From the NCBI RefSeq assembly GCF_964194025.1, contig NC_134468.1:65410001-65474000 (forward strand): DNA of 64,000 nt, written 5' to 3'. This DNA comes from Convolutriloba macropyga (taxonomy: Eukaryota). The stretch's first letter is position 1. Every line of letters starts with the position of its first letter. The translations under genes were made by a program, and so were the position numbers. Positions 17,246-63,690 of this stretch are shown here, piece by piece. Below the pieces are notes generated by a model that saw nothing but the letters and a program-made list of their open reading frames with translations, did not search any database and was not told where the DNA came from.

Positions 17246-20200
17246 TCAATCCTCATCCATTGAGTCATCCGCTGTCTTCCATTTGGGTAACTGAAATTGT
17301 GGGTTTTCCTTCTCTAATGGAACAAGCCGGCTTACTGGTCGTATGTAGAGTCCTTTTTGGGTTCTAACTTGGACGACTCGTACTATCTTGTCATTTCCGT
17401 CAAAAATTTTTGTAATCCTTGCCAGTGGCCATAGCATTGGAGGCGTGCTGTCTTCCTTGATAATAACAATGTCATTGACGGTGCACTGTTGCTTGTTATT
17501 GTGCCATTTTGGTCGATGTTGAAGTGTTGTCAAGTAGTCCACGGACCACTTTTTCCAAAATTGTCTGACAATGTTGATGCTTTTGAACCTTCTGTTTTTT
17601 GTCCGGTTGTCTTCTTGAAATGGCTCCGGCAAAGCTGTTAGTGGGCGACCAATAAGAAAATGTGCGGGTGTTAGTGCTGAAGGGTCATTGGCATCGCTAG
17701 AAGCGGCTGTCAGCGGGCTAGAATTGAGGATGGCCTCAATATGAGTGATCAAGGTTGTGAAACTCTCAAAGGACATATTTGTTGTCCCCACAGTCCTGTA
17801 AAAATGTCTCTTCATGGATTTTATTGCGGCTTCCCAGAGACCTCCGAAGTGAGGCGTCAGTGGAGGAATTTTCAACCAGTTTATCTGCTGTCCTGTGGTG
17901 AAAGCATCTACCAGTCCCTTGAATTCTCTGTCCATTAATAATTTCCGAAACTCAATTTCTCCCCGAGTTCCAATGAAAGTCCTTGAGTTGTAATTATAAA
18001 TATTTTCGGGCAGTCCACGTCGTGCTGTAATTCGTTTTATGGCGTCAAGACAGTCCTCTTTAGTCAAAATAGTCACTGTTTCCATATGAACAGCCTTTGT
18101 GCTGAAACATACAAATAGGGCAACATACGTCTTCTGCAATTTTCCACTGTTGTCTTTTGTGCTGAAAGGTCCACAGTAGTCCAAGCCAGTGTGGGTGAAA
18201 GCAAATGATGAAACAACACGTTCTGTTGGCAGATCTCCCATTTGCGGCTGAAGAATCCTGGCGTCGTGGCGAATGCAGGGCTTGCAGTTGTAAATAAAAG
18301 ATAAATCAATGTTAACTGTGGGCCTCCATGTAAGTTCCATGCATGAGCTTCACGAATTAGAAGCACTGTAATTGGCAAATTTTTTGGAATTAGGATAGGA
18401 AACTTCTTGTAAATTTTGTATGGCGAATTTGCTAGTCGTCCGCCCACGCGAACAACTTTATTGTCTGGGTCGTAGAAGGGAGAAAGTTTGAAAAGTCGTC
18501 CTCTTTTTGGCAACAGCTTTATTTTTCGTTTTGTGGTACTGTTGATCAATTGTTCTTCACGTGTACCTACATGTTGCTCCAATTCGTTGAAACTTGTTGG
18601 TTTGTCCAAATTACCTAATTGAGCTGTACAAAGCTTACCTACCTGAACCTTACCAATGTTGCCTACCTCAACCTTACCATTCTTACCTACCTCAACCTTA
18701 CCAACCTTACTTACCTCACCTTGACCAATCGTACCTACCTTAACCTTACCAACTTCAACCTTACCTACCTCAATTTTACCAACATTACCTACCTTAACAT
18801 TACCAAGGGGTTTATGATAATGCGCATCGTCTGAATTGTTACCTTCCCCTTCTGTCATTGATGAAGATGATTGACTAACAATGGCGTCAAACGCTTGCAA
18901 GTAAAGTTTTTGAATCAGACTGTATATGGCAATCCGTCCATGATAATGATCTGAAGAGCTGAGTTGACAAAATGATTGATGTTCAGATGCTGTTGCAGCT
19001 TCCGATATTTTCAGTTGACATCGTTTTGATGATAGGTTTTTCTTCTCTGAGTAGCATTTGATATCGAATTGCTTTGGATCTGTTCTGCAGGCAAAGGTCT
19101 TCTGGCTTTGTTTTTTAGCCTTCTGAATGAATTTCTTGACATAACAAAAAATTCAAACCAGTTTTCCAAACGAGGATATTCGATGAATTAGCTGAACTAT
19201 TGAGTTGTTCTCCTGAGTAACAACCATTGTCGTTTGCTTCAGTGTTTCTCTTTGCACTTCATTGTTCACTGCGCGCAGATGTTCCTCTGGATTCCGCCTT
19301 CGGCCAATAGTCTTCGCTTTTTTCTAGCCAGTCGGGTCCATTCGACCAAAGGCTGTGTTTGGCTAGGTTTGCGACTGAGATCCCTCGTTATGCGCAATCA
19401 GCAGGATTCTCCTCCGTCGGCACGAAATTCCAATTGCTGGATGGAATAATGTTTTGGATTTTTGCAACACGGTTAGCAACCAATGTCTTCCACTCTCTTG
19501 GAAATCCTTGCAGCCAAGCAAGTGTTACCGTTGAATCTGTCCAAGCGTACACCTTTGGCGTCGCGAAACGTTGGTTGCTCAAAGATGATGATACTGCTTC
19601 CACCAAATTTGCTCCAAGAAGTGCTGCACAAAGTTCCAGCCGGGGAACGCACAAGCTCCTTATTGGTGCAACTTTGGTCTTTGCTGTCAACATTCTTGTG
19701 TGAACTGATCGGTCGAAAGATTGTCGTATATACACAACTGCTGCATAGGCTGTAGTTGATGCATCCCAGAAGACGTGGAGTTCAATATCCGATGATGCTG
19801 GTGAGATTGAAAATACCTTTCTGGGCAGTGTATTATTTTCCAATTCCCTCTGTTGAACTCTGAGTCGGCTGTACTGTTGCTGAAGGCCTTTCGAAAAAGC
19901 TTCGTCCCATCCAAGTCGGTTCATCCAAAGCAGTTGTACAAAAGACTTGAACTGTATTGTTGTAGGTGAAAGCCATCGCAAAGGATCAAAGAGCCGGAAG
20001 ACTTCCGACATTATTTCGCGTTTTGTGGATGGTGTCTTTTCGTCCAGTTTTGCTATGAAACTGAAGTGGTCTGGATTTGGGTTCCATTGACGCCTAAAGT
20101 TTTTATACTGTAGTCGTCGCTTTTAATTGTCATCTCGTCGGTAGTTTCTCGAAAATTTGCAGGTAATCTTTCAACAAGTTCTGGGTTGCTCTAAGGCCAT

Positions 20201-21777
20201 TTGCGAATCTCAAACCCTGCTTCTGAAAGAACTGCTATGATTGATTCCTGCAGTTTCATTGCACTTTCCAGATCGGGTGCTCCTGTCAACAAGTCGTCGA
20301 CGTACATGTCTGTCATGATTCCTAGCTGTACATTTTTGTCCGTAACATCTTCCGCTAAAACTTGTAACGGACGAACAGAATGGAACGCTGATGATGCTAT
20401 TCCGTACGTGACACGTGTCATCTTTAATGTCTTTATATCTGTTAAGTTCGGTTCCTCCGAAAATAGTCGATGATAATCTTTATCTTCGGCGTCCAGTTGC
20501 ACTTGTCTGTACTTTTTTGCAATGTCTGCTGAAAGGGCAACAGGATACATACGGAAACGGATCAGGATGCTGAATAGATCTTTCTGGATCTTGGGTCCCA
20601 CCATCAGTCTATCGTTCAAAGAAATTCCACTGGTAGTCTTCGCTGAACCATCAAAGACTACACGCAGCTTCGTTGTTGTACTTGAGTCTTTGAACACACA
20701 GTGACGGCTGAGATAATAGCTTTTCTCCTTTGGCAGTAGCATCTCATTTTCGGGTACTTCTTTCATGTGTCTTAGTTTAATGAACTCCTGGATGAACTCG
20801 TTATATCCTCTGTACAGATCAGGCTGTTTTTGAAGTCTATCAAGAAGATTTCTAATTCTTCGTCGTGCTTGCTGCTGAGAATCCCCCTGTCCTCAAATTT
20901 CTTTTTTATAGGGCAATTTTACGATGAACCTTCCTTCAGCGCTTCTTCGTGTGGTTGAATTGAAGTGTTCTTCACATCTTCTTTCTTCGTCGGTCAGATG
21001 TTTAGTTTTAGGCACTTCCTCAATTTCCCAAAAACGCTGTAAGTTGTCCTCAAATGATAATACAAAGCAGGTTTGCAAACTGGAAGAATTGGAAGTTTGT
21101 ACGTTTTCGCGTCCGATTACTAACCAACCGAATACTGAGAGGCGATAAGTAACGGGAATGTTTGGTTCTTTCAGTCGGTTGTTTCCAACCATCAAGTCTT
21201 CGTAGTGTCCAGCTCCAATGATGAGATCAACTTGGGTGGGTTTGTTAAAGTCGGGATCAGCCAACTGTAGTTCGTTTACTGTCTCCCAATTGTCTGTGTT
21301 GATGGACCGAGAAGGCAAATCGTTTGTCACTGTTGTCAAAACTGACGCGTCAATGATAATTGGCGCTTTGTTTTTTGGTTGAAGGCAAAGGTCAACAAAT
21401 CCGCAATTAGCTGAGACTTCATTTCCTCTGAGTCCAAAAACACGAGTATTGTTCCTCTTTCTCTTTAGCTGAAGACTTTGTACTGCAGCTTCAGTTACAA
21501 GATTATTCTGAGATATAGAGTCCTGAAATGGTCGCAGATATACGATTTCTCCTTGGACATTAACAGGAACAATTGCTGTCTGGAGAAAAATTTCCTGTGT
21601 CTTGTCTTCATGCGTGAGTGATGCTGTTATCTTTTGATCCATAGTTGTTTGTTCTTCATTACTGCTTGAAGCTCCAGATGTAACATTTTCCTGTTCCCCT
21701 GAGTTGGCTTTGCGGCTGTTCCCAAACGATTTTTTCACTTGATTGTTGACTTGATGGGCATCTTCTCGATGCAACAA
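17246..21777 (-). pseudogene. pol: BEL-1 pol (aspartic protease, RT, Pao RNase H, integrase), broken by frameshifts and stops
   Basis: IFLQTAIV..DSISQ (protease); KLRVVFDGSAK, SADIAK, VTYG, MYVDDLLTG (RT); ELHVFWDASTTAYAAVVY, VPRLELCAA, WTDST, ENPAD (RNase H); RVGGRL, GLDYCGPF, PHFGGLWEAAIKSMK, LTPAHFLIG, FWKKWSVDYL (integrase and C-terminal domain). Confidence 0.93.
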
Positions 21778-21779
21778 GG

Positions 21780-22983
21780 TGTGATGCTTTCGTCCACATT
21801 GGCGTCATGAAGAACCTTCGCAGTTCTCTGCTAGGTGTCCTGGTCGTAGACAATTGAAACAAAGTCCTTTGATTTTGATCAGCTGGGCTCGCTCCTTGAC
21901 ACCTAAAACTTCGAACTTCCCACATTTCCTCTTCACAACATTCGCATTGCTGATTCGTTGACGTGACATGAGTGTGAAGGTGTCTCTGTCCTTGATTTTG
22001 TTGCGAATGAGATCGTTTTTCGATATTTGTTGAACTATTGATTGGTGCTGCTGACTCCAAGGCTTGAACCCGTTCCTCCAGGAAAGTCCTTAATTCCTGA
22101 TAGCTGTAGTTCTTTCCCTTTTGAAGAAAGCTTCCGGAACTTTCGTGTTTCGGAGGGCAGTTTCTCTGCAATCAAGTAGACAAAGAAGGGGTCCTGATGC
22201 TCAACTGGTTGTCCCATGTTCCGCAGAGAAAGTCTGTGCTCTTCCATTATGTCAACAAGTTTTCGTAATTCCCGCGTTTTCATTTGAAACTGATCGATAG
22301 GAAACAATTCCATGGATGTGGGCTCGCAGTATCAATCTTTTGTTGTCGTATCGGTTCTGCAAAATTTTCATTGCAACATTGAAGTTGTCATCGGTGACTG
22401 TGATTGAAGTTAACATCTTCGAAGCTTCTCCTTTCACAGCTGACTTCAGGTACTGTAATCTCAAACTGTTTGTCAACTGATCGTTATCTATTACTGCTCC
22501 CTTGAAGCGATCGAAAAACAAGATCCAGTCCAAGTAGTTTCCGCAAAAACTGGGCAAGTCGAGGTTCGGCAGATTAATGTTCTCTATATTTCTCGAGATC
22601 GTGGTGCTTCCGGCTGCAAATGAGCTCTCTCGCGACGAGTGTCTAGTCTTTCGCTGAACAAACCGATGAACATAGTCGATGTTTTGGCATATCTTGTCAT
22701 CATACTACTCTGTCTGAACAATATCTTCGTCCAAGTTGTCGGGATCATCAAAAAGAGACTGAATCTTTTGGTTCTGCTCAGATAGGAAGGCTTGCTTCTT
22801 CTTCAATAATTCAACTATCTTCTGCAGTTGGATAAGGTCGTCTTCATTGAGAAGTGTGAACGGTTTGTTCATTATGCCGTCTGCTTCATTGTAGAGTTTT
22901 GTTGCAACTCCTCTATGAGCTCCACTCGACTTTCGAAAAAGTTCTAGATTTTCTGGCATGTTTCTGATGTGCTGTTGTCTCAC
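21780..22983 (-). pseudogene. gag: BEL-1 gag (DUF1759-type core and Cys/His knuckles)
   Basis: LPSFCGNYLDWILFFDRFKGAVIDNDQLTNSLRLQYLKSAVKGEA...LQNRYDNKR; CFNCL..GH and KHHTLLH knuckle remnants. Confidence 0.88.
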
Positions 22984-49300: not shown

Positions 49301-52300
49301 GTTGACAAGACACTTTGCTTCACTGACGATCGTGGCAAAGACATCTGGGGTGAGTTTCGCGTTACCGCGGTTCAAGAGAAGAGCTCGTTTGACACACTGA
49401 ACGAGTATCTCCCACACCCCACCGAAGTGAGGAGCAGAAGGGGGTTTGAGCTTCCATTCGACTGACTGGTTCAGTAGCTGATTTTTGATATAGTCGTGAT
49501 CCAACCTCAGTGATCTTCGTCTGATCTTTCTTGCTCCCAGGAAGTTGGATCCGTTGTCTGACAAAAACAAACGACGTTGACCGCGTCGAGCGATGAAGCA
49601 TCGGATTGCTGTCAAGCACTTGTCTGTGCTGAGGTCTTCTGCAACCTCCAGGTGAATTTCTCTTGTAACCAGACAAGTGAATAAGCAGATGTAGGTCTTC
49701 ACTTCTGCATCTCGATGAACGACGGTGAACCTTGCCAGGTAGTGCACGCCGACATTGGTGAAGATGACTAGTGTCTGCGTTTCCTGGAAACGAATGTCTG
49801 ACAGGTCTGCCATCGATGGTTGTAGTCCCTGTGCTCGGAAGCGGCGACAGTCGAAACATTTGAAAGCCAAACTTCTCAGGAAGGCTCTGATTCCAAGAAT
49901 GTGAAACTTCTCTGATTCCACCTCTGTTGTATGTAGTTGCGGTTGTATTCAACTATGTTTATACAATTTTCGTGGCATTTCTGTATGTAGAGCTGAATGC
50001 TTGGCGTCAAAAGGTAGCGAGCTTCGTTTTGTCCTGCCACCAACGCGAAGAGGTCCGCCTTCAAAGGAAGGAGACAAACAGAGCAGACAATCTTTCTTTT
50101 ACAAAGACCTGTTTTGTTTGATGTCTTTGATAGCGTTATTGAAGGACTTCTCTTGCGGCTTTCTGAAGAGATAAATGAGTTTTCCGCTGATATGCTGCCA
50201 CTTGGAGACGTCTGTGTTGTTGCGGATCTCTTGTACTCTATTTGCAATAAAGGTTTTCAATTTGTCTTTGCTTTTAATCCAGGCAAGGACAGCTTCACTT
50301 TCGCTCCAAAAGTGTTTTGAAATTACTGGTGTGGTTAGTTGCTTGAAAACAAATTGCATTAGTCTTCATCCAGGCACTGCTGCTTGCAACTCAAGTTTTG
50401 GGATGCTGTTTTGTTTTAGTGGCCCAACTTTAGCTCCAGCTATAACGAAGCCAGCTGAAATTGTGTTAGCTGATTGAGATCTCATGTAAATGACTGCTCC
50501 ATAAGCCAACTGTGACGCATCACAGAAGCAATGTAACTGGTTTATCAGAGATGGCTTGATCGGAGAAACAAAACATCGTGGCTTTGCTCTTGCTGGCACA
50601 TTTAGATATTGCTCTATTCAAGTTTTTATTGATTTCTGTTTCTGATCTGACAAGAGGTCATCCCATGTAAGTCCTTCTTTCCAAGTATCCTGCAAGATGA
50701 TTTTTAGTGTAATCACTAATGGGGCAATGATTCCTAATGGATCAAACAAGCGGGCAATTAAAGGAAGGAGCTTTCTGAGTGCGAAGTCCGTTTTGTCTTC
50801 CTGAACTTTGGTAAGCTTCTGGTGGAAGAAAGTGTCATTAGCTGTATTCCACATTACACCCAAGACACGATGTTTGTCTATTTCATTGTCACAATGCTCT
50901 TTGGGTATTTCGTCAAAGCATTGAGCAAAGTTTGACACAAACTTAGTTCGACTAAAACCTCCTTTAGAGTGTTTGTCGCAGGCATGAGCTGCCGTTCGAT
51001 CTTCCTGTTCATTGACGAAAGAATGTGCGTTCATCCATGTAGAATCTGTGACTTATTAAATCTTTCGTTGTAGTGGTGTTTCCGAATTATTTTGCTGTTT
51101 GTTGGAGCACAAAAATTGCTGTAGTTGGTAAACCTCTGGCTCCAAAGATGAGTCGCGTGTACTGGAACTGCTGTTTGGAGTTCTTTGCCGGCCAAAGAAA
51201 ACGGAGGCTAGACTGATCTTCTGTTCTTATGCAGATCTGCATAAACATGGAGTCTGTCTGCCATTACTGCAACGGAATGCTGGCGAAAACGGAGTAATAG
51301 GCCAACTAGGTTGTTGAGAAGGTCGGGACCTCAGAAGATTTCTGTTAAGCGACTGCTTCTTGAAAACAGATTCGGCGTTTGCAACACGCCTAAGTTTTCC
51401 GGGTTTGCTGCGGTTGGTGACAGGGTGACGGCGAAGATACCATATCTTCTCCAGTGGTGGATTTAAGAAAGTAACTGATTTGACATAACCTTTCTCTAAA
51501 TCGGTCTCCAAGTTTTCTCATACAATTGTTTCAACTCAATATTTTTGTTAAGTCGGCGCTGAAGGCTGTCAAGCTGTGCTTTGGCAACTGCATAGTTGTT
51601 ATCTAATTTAGTGTCCTGTTTCCAATGTAAACCTTCTTCATATCTGTCTCCGATTTGATTAATTGTATCTTGGCGTATTTGAACTGCTCTTTCACTGTCT
51701 GTTGAAGTATCTGCAGTTTCTTCAGTTTCGGTTCCTGTATTCTCTATTTCCAGAAACTGGTCGCACATTCATTGATGTCTTTCAGTGTCAACAGTTAAAT
51801 TTGTGAGCGCATTGTCAAAGGCTCTATAACTATGGGACAGGAAGTTTGTCTGCTCTAGGATTGATTCATTTTTTTTTAAAAATTGGGCTTTTAGTTGTCC
51901 AACCGAGATTGCGTAAAGCAAAAGGGCTTCCTGAAGGTCCTTGTAGAAACACACTTTCCATAATAAATTGGGCGGCGTCAACCTTTAACGGTATCTGTAT
52001 CTTGTTATCACTAAGTTCAGGAAAATGTATATGTTGAAGGTGAGTAGGACGACCACGCATCCTTGAAAGTCCAATTACTCCCTGCATGTACGTAGTTTAA
52101 ACCGAAAAGTGGTTTTTCGCTTTTGAACTTTCCAATGTCTAAGCGAACAAGATTTGCGTACCTTACGGATTCGTCAAATGCGTGTGATACATTCAGATCG
52201 AATTCTGAAGTATTTGGAGCCCCTACCTTGTCGGCATCGGTGTTGAGGACGTATGAAATGGTACTACCCTTGTCCAGAATGGCATAACAATTATGTCTTT

Positions 52301-55300
52301 TCCTGGATCACCTGTAGTTGATTTCTCGTTCTTGGTTGAAAGCCAGGATTTTAAACCTGAGTTGGAATGCCATTGTTTTTGTCTTGTTGGTCCAGCGGTT
52401 CACACATTGGTAGATCAATTTCCGTTAAGTTTGTCATTTCGGGCGCTTTCTCTCTGTCTGTGTGGAGAAGACTATGGTGTTTGCCATTGGAATGTCGACA
52501 GAGAACTTTTGACGTGCCGTTTTTGGCGGAGTGACTGGCACTTAAGCAGTTTAACAGAGTGAGTTCTTCCTTGCTTCGCTATTGCGTCTGCTGGCATCGA
52601 GTCTGAGAAACTGTGGACACTTGCCAATGTAGTGATTGCTGAGAAACTGCGGACACTTGCAGGCTTGATCTTGCTGATCAAGTGGGCATTTGTTCTGCTC
52701 CTGTTTGCTGTTGCATTTCTCATAGACTGCTTTGAACCAGAGAAAGAAGAGCTTCCTTTTGTTTCGTTGCTACTGTAAGCCGTCGATTGCTGAGGCTTTG
52801 CATTATCGATGTTCCTATTCGCACGATTTTGGTGTTTAATCTGGTTGTTGAAGGAACTTGAACCCTGTGGTTGGTTTTGTTGACCCGAATAGTTGATGAA
52901 AACGTGTCTTGTAATTGTTGGAAAGCTCTGGATTGTCGATCCATCCAATCGGAAAGCTCTACAAGACCTGCATTCGTCCAATTGTTGTCAACATGTTCGG
53001 TCCCCTTCAACTTGAGTGGGTTTGGTAGCTTATCACGGGCTATCGTGAGTAATTACTTGGCTTTTAGGTCGGCACTGAAACCATGTGAGACAAATGTCTG
53101 CGTGGTCATTCATGTTTGGTCTTTGAAAAGCTTCTAGTTCTTTTGTTAAAGCACCGACGTTTTGCCGGTTTTCAAAGCGTGTGTTGAGTTCTTGAAAGAG
53201 TTACGGAAGAGTAAAAGTCTGGGTTGCAAAGACAGCCGGAGATGCAATCCTTTGCCTGTCCAATGAGTAAACTTTACAAATAACTCATTCAGTGTCAGTG
53301 ATGTCTTCGTTATTGTGGTCGAAGAAAACATGCTGCTCCATTCGTTCCACTTAAGCGGGTCTCAATCGAACCTCTGAATTCGGATGTCCGACAGCTTTAC
53401 TGAGCAATGAATGTTCCGTTTACGGTATGGATTGGAGCTCTGATTGCCAGAGTTTTGGCTGATCGGGTAAACAGGTCCACGAAGGGTTACGTTTGACGGC
53501 TCAAATTTACCGTTTGCAAAGTTAGACCAATTGTTTGGGCAACAGCCCTGAAATGGGCTGGAATGGCTTCATCTTGGTAGACGATTGCCGAAACAAACTG
53601 GAGCTGGTGTTCTATGATCAGGTACATATTCAAAGAGGCCAGTGTTTTTAATGGGCCTGGGAGGAGCGAAAGTATTTCTAACCGGAGGAAGTGTTTCTCT
53701 GAAAACTGGCGGTTGAATATATAAATTTGTAGACAATTGTGGGAATGCACAAATTGCGTCAAAAAAGCTCTGCGAAGAAATTGCTGGATTCACAATTGGT
53801 GCTATTGGTTGAAGGGGCTGATGTTGATTTCCTGCTACGTTGATAGGTTCTGATCGTTCCTGCTGATGGCTGGGATTATTCTGTACATCAGTACTGATGA
53901 CTATTAGTTTTCTTGCAAAACTCCCATGATGGACTGCACTTGTCTATCATAGTAATCGGGTTGAATGTTGATTGCTGGTCTGCCAAATCATTGATTCGTT
54001 GTTAACGGGTATCTCGCATACTTTTTGAACAACTCTCGGAGACTCGGGTCCAGAGGGAAACGGTTTTCGGTTACTGCATGATGAAGCGGCACTGCATGGA
54101 CGCGTTGAGGTGTTTCGGAAGGAAAGTTCATGCTTCTTTACAGTTTGTGCAACTTCTACTTTTAGCTTTGTAAAGCATACTGCATCGTTGAAGAGGAGTC
54201 TTCAGCGTCCACATTTTCCGATTGTGTAAGCTGGTCGACAAGCTCGTCTAATTGTGACATTGTTTTCTTGAATTCATCATGTACTGACACAAATTCGGGT
54301 TCCAGGACTGACTGTATTAGATATTCTAGTTCCCGTTTGAGCTCTTTTACAATGTTTAGTTTTCGGTGAAACAATCTAACTGTACTAACTATTGATGGCT
54401 CTTGACCTCCCATTCTCTTTATTGGTGTTTTTTCTGAACTTTAGAAGCAAATTGAAAGGCCAAGTGGGGTGAATATAGGCCCCTTGGAGGTCACAACGAA
54501 TGAACTTTTCACCTCTTAGATGTCACTTAGAGGTCATGTGGCGTAATCTTTTTACCTTTTTGAGGTCACTTAGAGGTCAAGTGGGGTCACTTTTCGACCT
54601 TTTTGAGGTCGCTGAGGTCAAAGGGGTGACCTTTTGACTTTATAGAGGTGACTTAGAAATCAAGTGGGGTGACCTTTTGAACTGTTAGAGCTCACTTAGA
54701 GGTCAAGTAGGGTGGCCCTTTGACCTTTTAGAGGTGTTAGAGGTCAAGTGGGATGAACTTGTAACCTTTTAGAGGTCACTTAGAGGTCAAGTGGGATGAA
54801 CTTTTGACCTCTTAGAGGTCACTTGGAGGTCAAGTGGGGCGACCATTTGAACTGTTAGAGGTCAAGTAGGGTGACTGTTTGACCTTTTAGAGGTCACTTA
54901 GAGGTCAAGTGGGCGACCATTTGAACTGTTAAAGGTCAAGTAGGGTGAATTTTTGAACTTTTAGAGGTCACTTGGAGGTCCGTGGAGGAAAATTAGTGAT
55001 TTTTGGACGTCACTCGGGGGTCTCTGGAGGACAGTAGATGACTTTCTTAGGTCACAGGGGGGTCCTGTGAGGACAATTAGTGATTTTTGGAAGTCACTTG
55101 TGGGTTCCCTGCAGGACAGTTGGTAACTTTCTTAGGTCACTTGGGGGGGGGGGGTTCCCTGGAGGACAATTATTAATTTTTGGAAGTCACTCGTGGGGTC
55201 CCCTGGAGGATAGTGGGTGGCTTTCTTAGTCACTTTGGGGGTGCCTGGAGGACTTTCGTAGGTCACTTGAGGGATTCCTGGGAGACAGTGACAGTGGGTG

Positions 55301-58300
55301 ACTTTCGTAGGTCACTTGGGGGGTCACGGGGGTCAATTAATGATTTTTGGAAGTCACTCTTGGGGTCCCTGGAGGATAGTGGGTGGCTTTCTTAGTCACT
55401 TGGGGGGTCCCTGGAGGACTTTCGTAGGTCACTTGAGGGATTCCTGGGAGACAGTGGGTGACTTTCGTAGGTCACTTGGGGGGTCCGTGGTGGACAAATA
55501 GTGGTTCTTGGAAGTCACTCGTGGAGTCAATGGAGGACAGTGGGTGACTTTCTTAGGTCACTTGGTGGGTCCCTGGAGGACAGTGGGTGACTTTCTTAGG
55601 TCACTTGGGGTTCCCTGGAGGACAATTAATGATTTTTGGAAGTCACTCGTGGAGTCCCTGGAGGATAGTGGGTGGCTTTCTTAGTCACTTGGGGTCCCTG
55701 GAGGACTTTCGTAGGTCACTTGAGGGATTCCTGGGAGACAGTGGGTGACTTTCGTAGGTCACTTGGGGGGGGGGGGGTCCCTGGGGGACAAATAATGGTT
55801 CTTGGAAGTCAGTCGTGGGGTCGCTGGAGGACAGTGGGTGACTTTCTTAGGTCACTTGGGGGGACCCTGGAGGACAGTGGGTGACTTTCGTAGCTCACTT
55901 TCGGGTCCCTGGGGGTCAATTAGTGATGTTTGGAAGTCACTCCAGAGGTCCCTGGAGGACAGCGGGTGACTTTCATAGGTCACTTGGGGGGTCCCTGGAG
56001 GGCAGCTGTACTGCAAGCTGGTTCTGCTGGCAGAGCACTAAAAGCTGTTGAGTGTAGCTGCTGAAGAGTCAGGTTGGCCTGAGTATGCTGGCTGGCTGTT
56101 GGAGGGCAGTAGTGGGACTCTACTGCAAGCTTGTTCTGCTGACAGAACACTGGAGGCTGTTGGGTGCAGCTGCTGATGATTCAGATTGGCCTGAGTGCGG
56201 TGGCTGGCTTTTGGAGGGCAGTAGTGAGGGTCAGCTGCAAGCTCGTTCTGATCGCAGAACACTGCAGGCTGTTGGGTGCAGCTGCTGATGACTCAGGTTG
56301 GCCTGAGTATGCTGGAGGGCAGTAGTGGTGCTGTACTGCAAGCTGGTCCTGCTGGCAGAACACTGGAGGCTGTTTGGTGCAGCTGCTGATGAACCAGGTT
56401 GGCCTGAGTGCGCTGACTGGCTGTTGGAGGGCAGTAGTGAGGGTCTTTTCCAAGCTGGTTCTGATGGCAGAGCACTGCAGGCTGATGGGTGCAGCTGCTG
56501 ATGACTCAGGTTGGCCTGAGTGCGCTGGCTGGGTCCTCTTCGTCTTGCTTGTTGATAAAATCTTTGCAAAATTTTTCACCGGACCCGAGATTTTGAGCCA
56601 AGCTACTAAAGTTTTCAAAATCTGATTTTTTAAAAATGAATTCAATCTTGTACAATTATTTTACTAATTACAATTTTGACGCATTTAATGAAACCTCGGT
56701 TTATAGAAACCTAATGAATGGTATTTCGAAAGGAGGGTTGTTAAAATGCTGGTCCCAGAGAATTCAATATGAAGAACACTGTTTTTATAAAATTGAAATC
56801 GCTTTTGTAGCTTCCTAAGACTTGCCACGAGATGTAGTTTTTGTATAGGTTACCGGCACATATCTCTCGGTTGAATCATCCATACCTGTTTGTGGTCGCT
56901 TAAAAATGTTGCAATACTTTTCTCTCTCTAGATCTCCATTTGCTGACATCTAATGCCTTACACGTTCTCTCTTGGCTTTGACCTCTGTGTGTTGAGATCA
57001 TTGTATTGAAATGAAGATCTCCCTTGTTGTACTGCTATATTAATTCACCTAATATGTCAGCCGGCTCCTTGACTTCTGAGAGTCCATCGTTCAGGTTGTT
57101 GGGTACCATGGTTCATCTCTCGATCGGCCTTAGAACTGGTTGGTAAGTAGGCTGAAGCGCCAAAATGAATACGACTAAGAGCCTCCTGTCCATCGTATCC
57201 TGTCCTTTTGTCAATATCTATTTGCTTCGTTTCGCATGTTTAATTTCTCTATATAAACCAAATCAAGTAAAGCATTTTACATTCGGTTAAAATCGACTTC
57301 ACATTCTCTTACAATTTTGGGTTATAAAGTCATAAGAATCAATCATACAATTGCGGTAAAATCAGCGAAGTTAATGTGAGGCATTAACACCCCTTTTTAT
57401 ACTCTTTTTCGCTTAACTTTCACTTAACGTTAGTAGAATGTTTAATTGCTCTTGAACGCAGTTCATAGCAATTATTGTAAACGTGTGTGTCTTTTTTTAT
57501 GCAAATTTTTCGCTTGACAGTTTTGCGCTTTTCTTCTAGAACATTCTTTGACTTCTCAAGTGACTTTTTCACGCTTTCGTTCTTCATTTTCGAGTGATCT
57601 CTATTGCTCTGAAGTAAAGCTAATATAAATTCGGTTGCAGAATAAGTGAGGTATGTGATCTGAAGCGCAGTGGTTAGTAGTTGTGGATGTGAATCGGGAG
57701 GGCAGTGGTTCGAATCCCGGCGGGGAAAAAATTTTTGGCACCCATAATTTGATCTAGGCTACAGCCCCTGAATTAAATTGCCTCGCCTGTCGTTCAAGAG
57801 CAATTCTTCCGACATTTGTCGGTTTATGTTTTGTTTTGTGTTACTCATTTTTGATCAACCAGGTTGTCAATGCCAAACAAACACCCCTTAGTAAAAATAA
57901 AAAATAAAATGGTGACCAGAAAGGTCAAAATCAAAGGTCAAAAATGGTGATCCGAGTTATCAAAGGAAAAGATATGTTTTTCTAAGATACGAAAAGTAAG
58001 TTGTGACATGTTAATTTTGACATTCTAAACAGCTGGAGACCAGGGTGGAGGACTTACTACAGCTACCCTGTCTGGATCTGGAGGGGAGGACGAGACTACT
58101 GGAGACGAGGTTGAAGGTTTTGCATATGGAGTGGAAGATAGCTCTGGGGAGGTGTTGCTGGGTGCTGTCAAACAGCAGTGTTCAATCGCTGGCAGCATCC
58201 CCAGTCTGGCTGAGCTCGATTTGAGGGAGGATGTCTACGCTATTCTTTCAGATGCCAGTGAGTTTCAACGACGGCATGACCAATCATAATATGTGACAAC

Positions 58301-61300
58301 CAATTATTAACTAGTGCAAATAATGTCGGAACTGTATTACAAGCGCTCGAATATATGCTATATGCCTTGTGCGATGTGGTATTATTAATTGCTCTCAAAC
58401 GAAGTTTGTAGCAATTATATTAGTCCTGTCGGTATTTTTTATGCAATTTTTCGCTTGACCAATTTTTCGTCTGACGCATTTGACTTTTCGTCCTGAAAAA
58501 CGGGATAAACAGGTAGCGCCCAGCGGGCATTAAGTGCTCTTAGAGCCGTTCAGTCCCTAGTCTTCAAGTATGTGATTAACAGAAACCGTTTTGGAGACTT
58601 ATACTTATGGTGTGAAGGGCGGTTCTTAGAGATTGAACCCCCCCCCCACTGTTGCCAACCCATCAGTCCCCCTGTGCACCCCCCCTCCCCCCCCCCCCCC
58701 CGCTGCGCTCACCCTGTCGGTCGTTTTTTTTTGCAATTTTTCGCTTGCTCCCGCTGCGCTCACTTACGCCCCTTCAATTAAGCTAAAGCTAGCCTCACTA
58801 AACCGTGCCTAGCTACTGACTAAGCCAACCGCGCGTCGGTCGTTTGAGAGCACTTCGCCCAATGTTAGTCGGTTATGTTTATCGAGTTTATCTTTGCAAG
58901 AAACCGGGAAAATTATAATTCCAGAAGCTGTTAGAGCCAGCGGTAGTACATCTAGCTCTCTCTCTGGAGATTACGAAGTATATGTCTGCAGTTTTTAGAT
59001 GTCTACTTCCAGCAAATGTAAAGAAAGTGAGCTATAAAAGCTTACTAGGTCCCATTCAGCAACCCTCCTTTATTTTTATGGATTAAACCAATAACACAAC
59101 CTTTAACAATTTTAACATTTTTCAGCAAAATTGACGAAAATCGGGAAAATTACAAAAACTTTTAACGGAAGCATCGTAATTCGGCCGAATGTTTACAAAA
59201 CTTAAAATCTCGATAACGCTCTTGGAAGAAAAAAGTTAAAATCTTTTTAATTCCATATTCTACGCTGGACGGGCTTTCTATACTACCACTCGCAATTCTC
59301 TTCGATGATTATATCAGTCGGCCGAAATTGACTGAAATCCATTTGATTATATAGTTCATCCCCCCACTAAATTGGGTCGGAACAACAATGATTGGAAATG
59401 TTTTGTCTTTTCCTTTTCGGTGCTTTCCTTTAGCTAAGGGCCATAGACTATTTAGTAGCTTTTGCCCTGAAGTGTGTTGGTTGTGTTAAATTGTTTTTAT
59501 AGATTCCATTTTAAAATCCAAGTACGCTTTGTTGACTTTCAAAGTTTGATATTGCCTGAAAAACGAAGATGTTCAGGACAACCATTAATTTTTCTCGGGA
59601 TTCATTCGGTACTTGTCCAGCTATTTTTTGTTACAATCGCAAAAATTTAGATAGTACTGGCGCGCTTCTTCAATGATCTCTTGTTTTTTTTCTTGATGGA
59701 AATAAGAACTCAGATAAAAATGTTTACTTTAACATGGTGGCATAGGAAAGGGAGGAAAATAGCGCGTTAGTTTGAAGCGTTATTTTTGTCAAGTTCGTTT
59801 GAATTGGGTTGAGAAACTTGTATTTGAACAAGTTTTTGGTTTTCGAAAGCTAATTGTTTTCACAAGCGGCTATTAGACTTCTAATTTCCTCCTCGTATTT
59901 ACAACTACCGTTTGCAAATAGTCATACATGCGTTCTAATAAAGCAAGTTCGTACTTTTTTGATTTATCAAAGAACAATTAATGGTTTTTATGACTTACAC
60001 ACTTTTTGTTTTAAATTTTCCTCCATTTTTTGAATTTTGCTCCTTTTCTTAGTCTGATTTTCGACTGGTTTCATTGGATCTCTTACGAGGCGTAAAAGAA
60101 GCTACATCATAGCTTTAAGCGCGGTGAGATTTTCACTTCACAATTTGTTTTCAAATAGTGTCAGTGATTTCTAGAGTATTGCTCATTTTTGTATTTCCGA
60201 TGGTTGAGCACTTAGCTTAATCTTATTGATGATAGCTGTCATCCTTTGTTAATCAACCAAATTGAATCTGATTAATGGTTTGAGTTAATTGTCAATTTTT
60301 TCAATGACTTTTGAGATAAAACTTGTTTTTGAAACTTGGCGAGTTTTTGAGTTTCATGTTATTTTTTAAACTTTTATTCTTATCACTTTGTCTCATTGTA
60401 GACAGGTCTCATCGGTTGATAATCAGGCTTAAATTATTCGAAATACATTTTAAGCTCAAAGCTATTGCTTTCTGTATCTGGCAGTCATAGTCTTCGAAAA
60501 TATTTGTGAATTTTTAAATGTTGCCCACTTTTTCTTTTAGTTGTCTAATAATTTAGTCTCATTAATGCCAAGTATCATTGTTTCGCTATTGAGTAATGAA
60601 AAGGCATAATTAGTGACTTGAATTTTGTGCAGTGAGTGTTATGATTTCAGCTTTTTTAAATTAAAAAGTGGTAATTGTTTTTTGAGTTTCGCTCGTTTTT
60701 TATGTGGGCTATTGGCTTTGTCAAATTAGGGAGCTCTAACGCTTTCTAGTGCGGCGTTTTTGTTGATAACTTATTGAGTACAGTTTTTAGTTATCGCCTT
60801 TATTGGTTTGGAAAACTTGTTCTCATTTTGTATGTGGTTTGTGTTTTTCTCACTTTGTCGACACTATTTTCTCTTTTTTGCCAGTTTTCTCAGCTTTTGC
60901 CGTTTTTGCTTTGTCTGGCATTGATTTCAACAACTTTGCATTGTGTACTCATGCTAAGTAAGCGAAGTGTCAGTGTTGATATAAAGTGATATATTGAATT
61001 ACTCTCGAATAGAAGCACTTATTGTAAAGGTGTCTTTTTTAATGCAAAATTTTTGCTTGACCGTTTTTTGACTTTTCGAGTGACTTTTACACTCTTTACT
61101 TTCTGCGTCACAATTTCAAGCAGTTGAACTCAATTGGCGGCAGATTAATACTAAAAGTCAAATGATAAGTGCGCCAAAACTGGTACCATTTTTTCTCTTT
61201 AAATCTTAGTGGTATATATTAACCTCTAATGAGGTTATTGGAAGCACTCTAGTGCATTTCTTAGTCGCATTCGGCTTACAGCCCACTAATATATTTGTTT

Positions 61301-63690
61301 TGACTGTCATAGTTTGATATTGCAGGAAAAATTTTTGATTTTCAGGTAATTAATTTATTCTATTCTTTGGTTTTTGTTTCAGGACTTGTCCTGCTGTTTT
61401 TTATTGTTGTAAGATTGTTGTAAGACGTTTGCAAGACACTAAGACACCAGGATCACTCTTAATCTGCTTTTTTTTCATTCATTTTGTTAAATTCAGACTG
61501 AATTGCGTGCCTGTCGTCTTTTTCCACTCTTTTTGTAACTAGTTTTTCATTATCGTGATTATCACAGGGACTTGCTCATTCTCGAAAAGGTTTTCCTTGC
61601 TTTCAATTTAACAAGATATGCAGGTTCTTGATCAAAATATAACATCTCAGCAATTAACAGATGAGAATTTTTTTGTCTGGTTTTTTATTTTTATTAGCCA
61701 TCCTTATCATCCAAGCCGGCTATTTTAGCGCTTCGTTTTTTTTTTATTTCGTCGAATATTTTTTATTGCGTCCAACAAATCTTTGTTTTGCTATACCTCA
61801 TTTTGCCGCTTTTTCGATATTTCGACTTCTGTTGGCTAGTTTCTATCTTCACTCATTCTGATCAAAGTGCTTCTAAACCGCAGTTGCTCAGCAAGGTAAT
61901 CTGTAATGAACAGAATCAGCATCAAGGAGCGAAATCAGAAATGGAAACGGGATCAATCACTAAACGCCCGAAGTTTGAAGCAATTATTACAAGCGTCTTT
62001 TTAATAAAAATTTTTCGGTTTGACCGTTTTCTTCTCATTCTTTCGATTTCACTTCTTGAGTGACTTTTTCACGCTTGACTTCTTAGGTGCAGAGTTTGCA
62101 AAAATTGTTATTTTCCCTCTTTTTTCTCGATTTATTGCTTGACCTAATTTGCTCTTATTGGAGAACTAAGTCGGACATAAACTAACATAAAAGGGGTTGT
62201 AGACTAGAATACAAGGGCCTGAGTGGCGGAAGTTTCCAGTCTAGGAAGCAGGAGGTAGCGTGTTTTAATCCCTCACTGGTCGGATTTTTTGCACCAATGA
62301 ATTATTTGAACCAATATCTTCGCTACAGCCACCTCTTGAATTGCGCCGCCTGTTGTTTGAGGGCAATTTAACCGATGATAGTAGTTTTTTTGTTTGGTAT
62401 TGAATCCCAGCCCTGTAGCTTCTCATTAAGAAACAGTAGTTTATCTAACTACAAAATCTAATCAAAATAGCGTGCACTTTAATTTAATTTTCTTTTCTTT
62501 CAATCCCAACCTGGGTTATGAAATCAGTGGGGGCAATTTTCCTGCAATTCTTAAAAATATTTTTGAAACTGCGGATCTACAAAGCTATCGCGGTTCTTTT
62601 GTGACAATTTGTCATCTGTGTTGTTTTTGATTCTAGGAGAGGTTTTTAATCTGATAAAATTTAAACTAAACCTAAGGAGATAAATAGTTCTTTTTGGCCA
62701 CAGATTGTCCAAGTCAAGTTGCGTTTACGCTTTATTTGATGCGTACGAAGAGAAGTACGTGGTAGTTTGCATGTGGTCGAGCTTGAATAATGTTAAGCGG
62801 GTTTTTTTTAGTTTCAATTTGTGACCATATAGCTATAAAAATTCTGTTCAGAGTTTATCTATTTGGGGTGGAATTAGTCGATCGATGGTCATCAGTTTAA
62901 TCAACTAGGTTTAAGAGAAATCATGAGAAACTATGAATTTGATATAAGCGAACTTATGTTAAAAACCAAATGTGTATTTGCCGTAAAAATTGTATTGATG
63001 ACAGTTTTTTTAAGCGGATCGCAAAGTTTTCTTCGATATTCATTGATATCTCTTATTGACAATTGCTCTCAAACAAAGTTTGTAGCAATTATATTAGTCC
63101 TGCGATCTTTCACACTACCAGTCCGTCTGATCGTTTTTTTTTCATCTGACCATTTGACTTTCAGTCCTCAAAAATAAGTAAACAGGTCAAAAACGGAGGG
63201 TATCAGGGTTCCTGGGCAGTTCTCTTAGAGACTTACGACTAACTAGTCTTTAAATATGCACTTCACCAAAAATGTTGAGGAAAAATAAATTCATGTTGTG
63301 ATGGGCGGTTCTTAGAGTTTGACAGCTGACCAACCCCGCTCCACCTCATCCGCTCAATTAACCTTGAGTTAGCGTCACTAAGCCGCAACGGCTCGCCAGT
63401 CGTTTGAGAGCAGTTCGCCCGACGCTAGTGCGCTATATTCAACGATTTTTTGAATTGTAATTCTGGACAAAGACTTGTAATTGTAGGCAACGATTTTCTG
63501 TGTAATTGCAGACAAAGACAATAAGGAGATCTACTACATTGGGTTGATTGACTGTCTCACACATTGGGGTACTAGGCGCAAAATGGCCTCCACGGCCAAG
63601 ACAGTCGCCAAGCCCACCCGACAGACCACCGCCAACCCGGATGATTACGGCGAGCGCCTCGCCAACTTCATGGACTCTCTCATTCAGTAG
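40367..63690 (+). CDS. PIP4K2: Phosphatidylinositol 5-phosphate 4-kinase type II, last four exons (5'-partial, 207 aa)
   Basis: Exons 40367-40474 (FLKECNLMDYSLLLGIHN...), 48356-48467, 58033-58257 (...ELDLREDVYAILSDA) and 63512-63690 (KEIYYIGLIDCLTHWGTRRKMASTAKTV...TANPDDYGERLANFMDSLIQ*). GT-AG introns with matching phases 0, 1, 1. MDYSLL, the DVYAI/EIYY.G.ID motifs and an Ala-type activation loop match PIP4K2. Confidence 0.9.
41050..42880 (-). repeat. About four diverged head-to-tail copies of a repeat with tRNA-like (A/B-box) segments
   Basis: Recurrent GAGTGGATGAAAAA (about 41210, 42340, 42860), TTGGCTCG (41391, 41822, 42107, 42608) and TTAGGA.CTTAAA. Minus-strand CGCAGCGGTAGCGCA and GTTCGAGTC boxes in some copies. 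Confidence 0.5.
44654..44960 (+). mobile_element. HINE-A copy (3'-truncated)
   Basis: TAATTGCTCTCAAACGAAGTTTGTAGCAATTA left end and TGGTGTGAAGGGCGGTTCTTAGAG core. Confidence 0.7.
44960..46500 (+). repeat. Diverged tandem repeat of about 165 bp, with a recent 333-bp tandem duplication (45614-45946, 45947-46280)
   Basis: Recurrent ATAATAAG.TACTG and TTTAA..TCAC motifs; TTGTCATTTCTTAGGTTTGTCTAGCCTCAAGAGCCACGG occurs at 45614 and 45947. Confidence 0.75.
46820..47310 (+). mobile_element. Two adjacent HINE-A copies
   Basis: Left ends at about 46820 and 47107; right end TCGTTTGAGAGCAATTCGCCCAATGTTAG at about 47272-47300. Confidence 0.7.
48752..48939 (-). repeat. 3' LTR of BEL-2
   Basis: Direct repeat of 57166-57364, lacking an 11-bp ATTTTACATTC segment. 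Joined directly to a truncated integrase tail with no PPT. Confidence 0.88.
48950..52300 (-). pseudogene. pol: BEL-2 pol remnants (protease, RT, RNase H, integrase)
   Basis: AILDKGS (protease), KPGKLRRVANA, HRVLGVMW, LFDPLGIIAP, LHCFCDASQLAYGAVIY, IPKLELQAA, FIANRV, FLSDNGSNFLG, APHFGGVWE, LTPNHFLLG, TPRGIWPLGRV. Confidence 0.9.
52300..54413 (-). pseudogene. gag: BEL-2 gag remnants
   Basis: Coiled-coil N-terminus (ORF 54162-54413), KLSDIRIQRFD.DPLKWNEWSSMFSST core, WTNAGLVELSDWMD, and Cys/His remnants. Confidence 0.75.
54455..54980. repeat. Minisatellite array 1 (about 43-bp unit GAGGTCAAGTGGGGTGACCTTTTGACCTTTTAGAGGTCACTTA) in the BEL-2 leader
   Basis: About 12 degenerate tandem units. Confidence 0.9.
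54980..56003. repeat. Minisatellite array 2 (about 43-bp unit CCCTGGAGGACAGTGGGTGACTTTCTTAGGTCACTTGGGGGGT) with higher-order structure
   Basis: More than 20 units; four unit variants recur in a fixed order. Confidence 0.9.
56003..56535. repeat. Minisatellite array 3 (about 113-114-bp unit, 4-5 copies)
   Basis: CTGCAAGCT-type anchors at about 56011, 56123, 56235, 56336 and 56448; each unit has a CAGGTTGGCCTGAGT-type core. Confidence 0.9.
57166..57364 (-). repeat. 5' LTR of BEL-2
   Basis: TGA...TCA direct repeat of the left LTR, adjacent to the PBS. Outer boundary uncertain; no clear TSD. Confidence 0.85.
57443..57830 (+). mobile_element. HINE-A subfamily copy containing a tRNA-like segment (about 57658-57725)
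   Basis: Left AATTGCTCTTGAACGCAGTTCATAGCAATT; right TCGTTCAAGAGCAATT plus hairpin CCGACATTTGTCGG; internal A-box-like AGCGCAGTGG and B-box GGTTCGAATCC. Confidence 0.65.
58385..58880 (+). mobile_element. HINE-A, well-preserved composite copy
   Basis: AATTGCTCTCAAACGAAGTTTGTAGCAATT ... poly-C tract ... TCGTTTGAGAGCACTTCGCCCAATGTTAGTCGGTTATG. Confidence 0.75.
58713..59510 (+). repeat. About 800-bp duplicate of 47145-47950 (HINE-A 3' part plus flank)
   Basis: Near-identical from CCTGTCGGTCGTTTT through TATAGATTCCATTT. Confidence 0.9.
63061..63440 (+). mobile_element. HINE-A copy just upstream of the last PIP4K exon
   Basis: AATTGCTCTCAAACAAAGTTTGTAGCAATT ... CGTTTGAGAGCAGTTCGCCCGACGCTAG. Other degenerate copies at about 61000-61270 and 61965-62385. 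Confidence 0.7.

Follow-up and report, generated by a model that had tools for sequence, protein, structure and literature searches.

The window, that is, the whole 64-kb stretch of DNA analysed here, contained a plus-strand PIP4K gene and, antisense in one of its introns, a decayed BEL/Pao LTR retrotransposon of a family that we called F1 (48752..57389, minus strand). The host, a marine worm, is likely an acoel, as its HNF4 shared 75% identity with the Symsagittifera roscoffensis protein and no more than 47% with those of other named animals. The last PIP4K coding exon (63512..63690, plus strand) was accompanied by a Pfam PIP5K match at 63511-63678 (E 2e-9), and the likely exons upstream (48356..48467) and downstream (58033..58257) of the element, both on the plus strand, were placed from AG/GT borders and reading frame. 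With the flanking exons placed in this way, the element made up most of a 9.6-kb intron. A preliminary description had located it inside PIP4K and had suggested an enhancer role there; the intronic position between exons stood, but nothing tied the element's leader array to PIP4K regulation. Other repeats were also seen in the window: a ~1-kb repeat with two copies (46900-47990 and 58500-59530), 1-2 kb on either side of the element; six long minus-strand frames of 150-367 codons at 17246-22704, probably another decayed element; and a 333-bp tandem duplication, 99% identical, at 45614-46283.

The 5' LTR was 224 bp long (TG...CA; 57166..57389, minus strand), as delimited by homology to the 3' LTR, and its start was common to five of the six other copies shown. 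Three nucleotides inside it was a PBS-like sequence starting with TGG (57157..57162, minus strand); beyond these first six bases the copies differed. The gag-pol region (48878..54413, minus strand), with the likely gag ATG at 54411-54413, was left by stops and frameshifts with many short frames, and the 3' LTR (48752..48939, minus strand) lacked its first ~26 bp. Pfam matches in the window copy were to Peptidase_A17 and DUF5641 (the latter below the curated cut-off), and one other F1 copy had DUF1759, RT, A17, integrase and DUF5641 in order, with the integrase below the curated cut-off. Together, the two copies had the Pao-type domains in the gypsy-like order of BEL/Pao elements. Additionally, the 224-bp 5' LTR, the partial 3' LTR and the 8.6-kb length agreed with the range given for this group (LTR pair 0.2-1.2 kb, element 4.2-10 kb; PMC3118150). 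No Pfam match to a protease was found in the window element or in the family copy. Near 52270, a degenerate motif was noticed by eye that we take to be protease-like. Comparison of the element flanks for a target-site duplication gave five matching bases out of six. The LTR pair of the window copy had 10 substitutions in 187 aligned columns, and therefore this insertion was old; in two other F1 copies checked the LTR pairs were >99% identical, and therefore the F1 family was recently active.

The 2.7-kb leader consisted of a unique stretch and three stacked tandem arrays, named C, B and A, with units of 112, 43 and 43/32 bp, respectively. Between the PBS and array C, the unique part of the window copy (56590-57160) showed no match exceeding 150 bp in any of the 19 other F1 copies compared, and the LTRs and PBS sequence also varied between F1 subfamilies. 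The comparison suggests that LTR and leader parts may have been swapped as modules. Distal array C (56005..56532, minus strand) had only 0.1 AGGTCA per kb. Each unit of array B (54980..56005, minus strand) had one perfect AGGTCA half-site on the element's antisense strand and a degenerate AAGTCA on the sense strand; two further motifs of the units were a GC-rich palindrome, which we take to be COE/EBF-like, and a GACCCCCC run, presumably similar to Zic/Glis sites. Array A (54455..54980, minus strand) ended ~40-75 bp from the likely gag ATG, in agreement with its earlier description as directly upstream of gag, and its 43- and 32-bp units contained 21 perfect half-sites in both orientations. 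Arrays A and B were considered as coding repeats and rejected, as there were stops in all frames. No frame of at least 150 codons crossed either array at 30 of 30 loci, and long frames started at the downstream edge of the array.

The four DR5 motifs (AGGTCA-n5-AGGTCA) first described in array A were exact (54563..54579, 54773..54789, 54816..54832 and 54891..54907, plus strand), and there was no other DR5 in the 64-kb window. The DR2 at 54797..54810 (minus strand), a motif that most other copies did not have, was likewise present, and we found a further one at 54670-54683. The inverted half-site pairs noted before were also real: array A had three IR7 (starts 54488, 54741 and 54784), one IR6 (start 54615) and five ER5 palindromes without strand assignment (54805..54970; starts 54805, 54848, 54880, 54922 and 54954), in addition to one DR4 (start 54574). 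Perfect half-sites numbered 21 in the 526 bp of array A, compared to 18 in the 54,360 non-element bases of the window. Shuffled versions of array A (n=2,000) had at most four half-sites each and never a DR5. It had been cautioned that tandem amplification multiplies one chance motif. However, when a single 43-bp unit was shuffled, 1.9% of trials produced one or more half-sites and none of 300,000 produced three or more, and therefore the copying of one chance hexamer did not account for the density. One of the three half-sites of the 43-bp unit looks like an internal 11-bp duplicate. Elsewhere in the intron, outside the element, there was an isolated DR7 of perfect half-sites (57922-57940).

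The array was characteristic of F1 copies regardless of how they were selected. A search with the array DNA gave 76 matches; gag was adjacent at every locus among the matches listed, and long frames began beside the array in most of these loci. Copies picked by the array had it in 20 of 20 cases, and copies picked by gag, which were mostly absent from the former list, had it in 19 of 20, leaving a single gag-picked copy without it. The geometry of the half-sites differed between copies. Array-picked copies (n=20) had 2-11 DR5 and 3-14 ER5 each, with DR2 absent in 17. Among the gag-picked copies (n=20), 18 had a 24-bp unit of pure ER5/IR7 alternation, representing a second F1 subfamily; DR5 numbered 0-2 per copy and was absent in 6, and DR2 was absent in all 20. 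From the printed units, the 32-bp unit would be the 24-bp unit with an 8-bp duplication that created DR2, and the 43-bp unit would be the 32-bp unit with an 11-bp duplication that created DR5. DR5 and DR2, including those of the window, appear to be by-products of these two duplications within a 24-bp unit of ER5/IR7 in one subfamily rather than a conserved unit. In one divergent F1 copy (L221:2445-2950), a ~100-bp distal array with IR7 sites replaced arrays B and C.

A search with the gag N-terminus identified sister families at ~53% (F2) and ~42% (F3 and F4) identity. A tree of the integrase region left this clade unresolved, and a tree of 540 Pol residues resolved it as ((F1,F2),(F3,F4)) with support 98/98 and 88/94. 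F1 and F4, which are separated by the deepest node of the tree, were ~0.7 amino-acid substitutions per site apart in Pol. Gag-proximal arrays were present in 7 of 7 F3 and 9 of 9 F4 copies, with units of 21/22 bp (or 32/54 bp) and from 9 to ~145 sense-strand AGGTCA upstream of gag. Moreover, a 112-bp distal array was found in F4 as well, and array B was ~70% identical to a 43-bp dimer of F4. Copies of F2 (10 of 10) had only a 101-bp array without AGGTCA, in which a GTCA core and an antisense AAGTCA remained. The F2 unit (e.g., L084:2755-5303) looked like a fusion of two halves, one similar to array C and the other rich in TGAC and containing a perfect 6-bp palindrome, and the F2 arrays exceeded 5 kb in several copies. 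No such leader array was seen in 20 of 20 other DUF1759 elements sampled from 150 matches. Judged from these sequences, the array is a trait of the clade and not a local accident.

We then compared array types, namely F1A and F1B (arrays A and B of F1), the 24-bp subfamily, F3a, F3b and F4. When 1,581 hexamers were ordered by their lowest density in any of five array types, AGGTCA, the word already singled out in the preliminary description, came first; shared ancestry forces some k-mer to be shared, and first rank among ~21-43 ancestral hexamers would alone be roughly a 1-in-20 event. In F1B the hexamer stood on the antisense strand only and in F3 and F4 on the sense strand only; F1A had it on both. 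The fraction of anchors with an IR7 partner was 0.95 in the 24-bp array, 0.47-0.62 in F3 and F4, and 0.14 in F1A, with none in F1B. For ER5, the partner fractions were 0.94 (24-bp), 0.68 (F1A) and 0.47 (F3b), and for DR5 they were 0.49 in F1A, 0.10 in F1B and <0.08 in four other array types. Thus, the ER5 arrangement recurred in the two F1 subfamilies and in one variant of F3, and ER5/IR7 were more widespread than DR5/DR2. The 5' context of AGGTCA in F3 and F4 was YCAAGGTCA or AAAGGTCA, and we take these contexts to include ERR and NR4A monomer sites. The YCAAGGTCA-type context corresponds to the NR5A monomer site (NR5A motif: PMC11202083). Helical phasing was considered as a common property, with 89-100% of same-strand spacings in five arrays falling no more than 1.5 bp from a multiple of 10.6; it was discarded because the unit of the 24-bp subfamily broke it and the spacings were not independent.

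Half-site columns were less variable than the rest of the unit. In this comparison, array borders were fixed, reference units were observed ones, short units were dropped (10 in F1A, 0 in F1B, 11 in F4 and 20 in F3a), and L139 and L091 were excluded from F3a. Heterozygosity of half-site versus other columns was 0.095 versus 0.190 in F1A (p=0.065; 284 units from 21 copies), 0.097 versus 0.191 in F4 (p=0.013; 383 units), 0.101 versus 0.206 in the 24-bp array (p=0.11; 324 units), 0.119 versus 0.147 in F1B (p=0.43) and 0.146 versus 0.180 in F3a (p=0.25). Pooling 54 half-site and 120 other columns gave p=0.001 with no single array decisive, and all these p-values overstate independence since units share ancestry and neither columns nor units are independent. 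The conservation of half-sites therefore held in the pooled data, but on its own it was significant only in F4 and borderline in F1A. Cross-family unit alignments alone gave p=0.08-0.2. Rare-variant rates at half-sites were lower than at other columns in F4 and F3a and equal to them in F1A and the 24-bp array, and this equality argues against a mutation-rate artefact.

The host had a set of candidate binders. As had been proposed, its nuclear receptors were listed: a zf-C4 search gave 43 exon-level matches, corresponding to ~30 loci by manual pairing, and many of these loci carried the CEGCKG P-box. Such a P-box reads AGGTCA (PMC12856210), and binding to single half-sites, too, is described for most human receptors (PMC10345098). 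When 10 DNA-binding domains were compared with the PDB, the best match was RXR for two, ERR for one, NR5A for one and NR4A for one (the last by a thin margin), and five could not be assigned to a class by best match. RAR was the best match for none of these 10, and ~20 further loci were judged by eye only. Candidate binders by class were L032 and L033 (RXR-like), L031 (ERR-like), L045 (NR5A-like), L049 and L055 (NR4A-like), L043 (COUP-like) and L036 (TR2/4-like). Four unassigned receptor exons (L046, L048, L050 and L054; G000:C13:8.80-9.05 Mb and C2:8.46 Mb) were near-identical, two of them with altered zinc-finger residues, and three receptors (L038, L039 and L056) had an unusual CESCKLFF P-box. 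Our literature search found no catalogue of acoel nuclear receptors.

A similar site was found outside the BEL/Pao clade. Genome-wide, there were 663 exact DR5 versus 212 for the reversed control, and 271 everted-plus-DR5 composites versus 0 for the control. The first 100 of the 271 composites fell into two groups, an F1-like one and the ~2-kb LTR of a gypsy-type element with RT, RNase H, integrase and protease. Its site was identical to the F1A core at 28 of 31 positions in an LTR otherwise dissimilar to the F1 leader, and it may have been captured by one element from the other. A divergent variant of this LTR kept 24 of 24 bases of the four half-sites versus 12-13 of 24 spacer bases, when found by a search with three of those half-sites, the remaining one not being searched for. 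Among 29 close LTR copies picked by flank, half-site columns were no less polymorphic than the other columns (5/24 versus 47/206, p=0.53), and three of the five half-site variant columns were G-to-T, still within RGKTCA. The four-half-site LTR composite was seen in copies of this gypsy-type element at L145:999-1048, L146, L150, L157, L158 and L161-L204. The element also had a 725-codon third frame without a Pfam match, possibly env-like, and shorter, probably non-autonomous relatives had the same LTR.

Since AGGTCA was kept in distant sister families while its spacing and direction changed, it was likely that the arrays were receptor landing pads. We consider it probable that the array is an element-encoded nuclear-receptor landing pad serving the element's own expression. 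Accordingly worded, the earlier nuclear-receptor interpretation survived with respect to an array that is owned by the element, is family-wide and has half-sites less variable than spacers, but not with respect to DR5/DR2 as the functional unit or to RAR/RXR as its readers. Host nuclear receptors would bind the leader array and regulate the element's own LTR promoter, and selection would act on the presence and density of half-sites rather than on one dimer geometry. The binders would be receptors with a CEGCKG-type P-box that tolerate monomeric or flexibly spaced sites. Candidates are NR5A/ERR-like receptors at the F3/F4 sites, NR4A-like ones at the F3b/F4/F1A sites, and RXR-, COUP- or TR2/4-like dimers on ER5/IR7. 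The output would be activation somewhat more probably than silencing or insulation, possibly in cells that express the receptors and contribute to the germ line. The insertion in the PIP4K intron would be passive.

An alternative was that the array is a neutral minisatellite, in which an ancestral palindromic unit with a chance AGGTCA multiplied through slippage and through template switches of the reverse transcriptase and has persisted by descent and homogenisation. Unit numbers varied widely (array B was 0.3-4.1 kb long), the distal arrays were equally tandem without AGGTCA, and F2 did without the hexamer altogether; moreover, mosquito LTR elements were described as commonly holding tandem repeats that are not family-specific (PMC3286476). 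Poly-C and poly-A spacers mutate by slippage. However, the half-site effect stood against non-run spacer columns (F1A, p=0.036; F4, p=0.008). Neutral persistence was also difficult to reconcile with the survival of AGGTCA, on either strand, across ~0.7 amino-acid substitutions per site, and with a near-identical composite in an unrelated gypsy-type LTR. We regarded this explanation as unlikely.

It was also quite unlikely that the site belongs to a non-receptor protein with a TGAC/GTCA core, such as a bZIP, TALE homeodomain or zinc-finger factor, for which the array would be an enhancer, silencer or gypsy-like insulator. Full AGGTCA, and not merely GTCA, was top-ranked in five arrays, and the G-to-T changes at three of five variant columns of the gypsy LTR half-sites stayed within RGKTCA. 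Nevertheless, no word but GTCA was dense in every one of the six proximal arrays, F2 among them (27 per kb), variation was lowest at the TGAC/GTCA columns, and the first G was altered in a common variant of F4. The leader arrays of gypsy and ZAM are reported to have insulator activity (PMC7168160).

The possibility that the units form RNA hairpins in the leader transcript for packaging, dimerisation or translation control, with the ER5 palindrome as a 6-bp stem, was very unlikely. Sense-strand folding was good in F1A, F3b and F2 (z -4.5 to -8.2) and weaker in F1B (z -2.5 to -6.0), and F2 had, by eye, a perfect 6-bp palindrome with different bases. However, the sense strands of F3a and F4 were unstructured relative to shuffles (z -1.6 to +0.5) and still kept the hexamer, the antisense strand of F1A folded equally well or better, and of 203 stem pairs that had changed in the 24-bp array, 5 were compensatory, 51 were G-U and 147 were mismatched. 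A shared RNA function was not supported by these folding scores and compensatory-change counts.

The original proposal of a retinoid-type DR5/DR2 enhancer for RAR/RXR, possibly acting on PIP4K, could draw on four perfect DR5 and two DR2 of the RGKTCA type in the window, two RXR-like genes in the host, the genome-wide excess of DR5 over reversed controls (663 versus 212) and a gypsy LTR variant that kept the DR5 spacing despite a changed spacer, but it was the most doubtful of all, as the DR5/DR2 geometry was confined to one F1 subfamily and not kept across copies or families, RAR was the best match for none of the 10 tested domains, and the window copy was old, decayed and intronic with no sign of host-side conservation.

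Hormone response elements are carried by the LTR of MMTV. A parallel to the predicted landing pad was provided by the binding-site arrays in the 5' UTRs of Drosophila retrotransposons, namely the copia leader enhancer, the Su(Hw) insulator of gypsy, with 12 sites within 350 bp, and the ZAM 5' UTR (PMC7168160). Similar to them, the F1 leader had a non-coding tandem array lying after the 5' LTR and ahead of gag, with the repeated motif more conserved than the spacers (pooled p=0.001), and we predict by analogy that the arrays would work like those leaders. In contrast to the fly elements as described there, the present arrays belonged to an acoel BEL/Pao clade, had nuclear-receptor-type sites (up to ~145 over 4 kb), were stacked in twos or threes, and turned over in strand and spacing between families. 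The 5' monomers of mouse L1 are likewise copy-number-variable tandem units at the 5' end with subfamily turnover (PMC7778262), but they form a non-LTR promoter, whereas the arrays reported here were downstream of an LTR and had much shorter units. Sirevirus motifs were similar in being short, high-copy palindromic cores kept across divergent elements while the intervening bases change, with function deduced from conservation as in our case (PMC2829016); they differed in belonging to plant Ty1/copia elements, in their CGG-CCG core and in their position in LTRs and before env. Alu and SINE B1 are also mobile elements with AGGTCA-type or NR5A-type sites, and Nr5a2 binds those of B1 in the early embryo (PMC7778262, PMC11202083). 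Those vertebrate elements were described with one to few sites each and with binding shown, in contrast to the dozens to >100 predicted sites, kept across families, of the acoel elements.

Our literature search found no report of AGGTCA arrays in the leaders of BEL/Pao or acoel retrotransposons; repeat libraries in the supplements of acoel genomes may contain them. Leader binding-site arrays were known from a few fly elements, and here they characterised a whole clade, in which the site was kept while unit length, spacing and strand turned over. In the acoel S. roscoffensis, about half of the genome consists of LTR elements (PMC9911081), and the present analysis named a candidate class of host regulators for such elements. 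The arrays could serve as natural high-density probes for the targets of uncharacterised nuclear receptors in a deep-branching bilaterian, and they would allow one to test directly if the activity of mobile elements is adjusted to receptor signalling by the elements themselves.

A broader scenario would be that the BEL/Pao leader arrays, the gypsy-type LTR composite and a third repeat with three half-sites converged on one host nuclear-receptor pathway, that array length is a dial by which element expression is set according to a ligand or nutrient signal in germ cells or stem cells, and that thousands of genomic sites titrate the receptor and rewire neighbouring genes; we consider this speculative and unlikely to hold. 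The third repeat was unclassified and ~2-3 kb long (L149:1025, L159:1702 and L160:1389). It had two or three AGGTCA at an 11-bp pitch, and these were kept in copies that were 81-88% identical.
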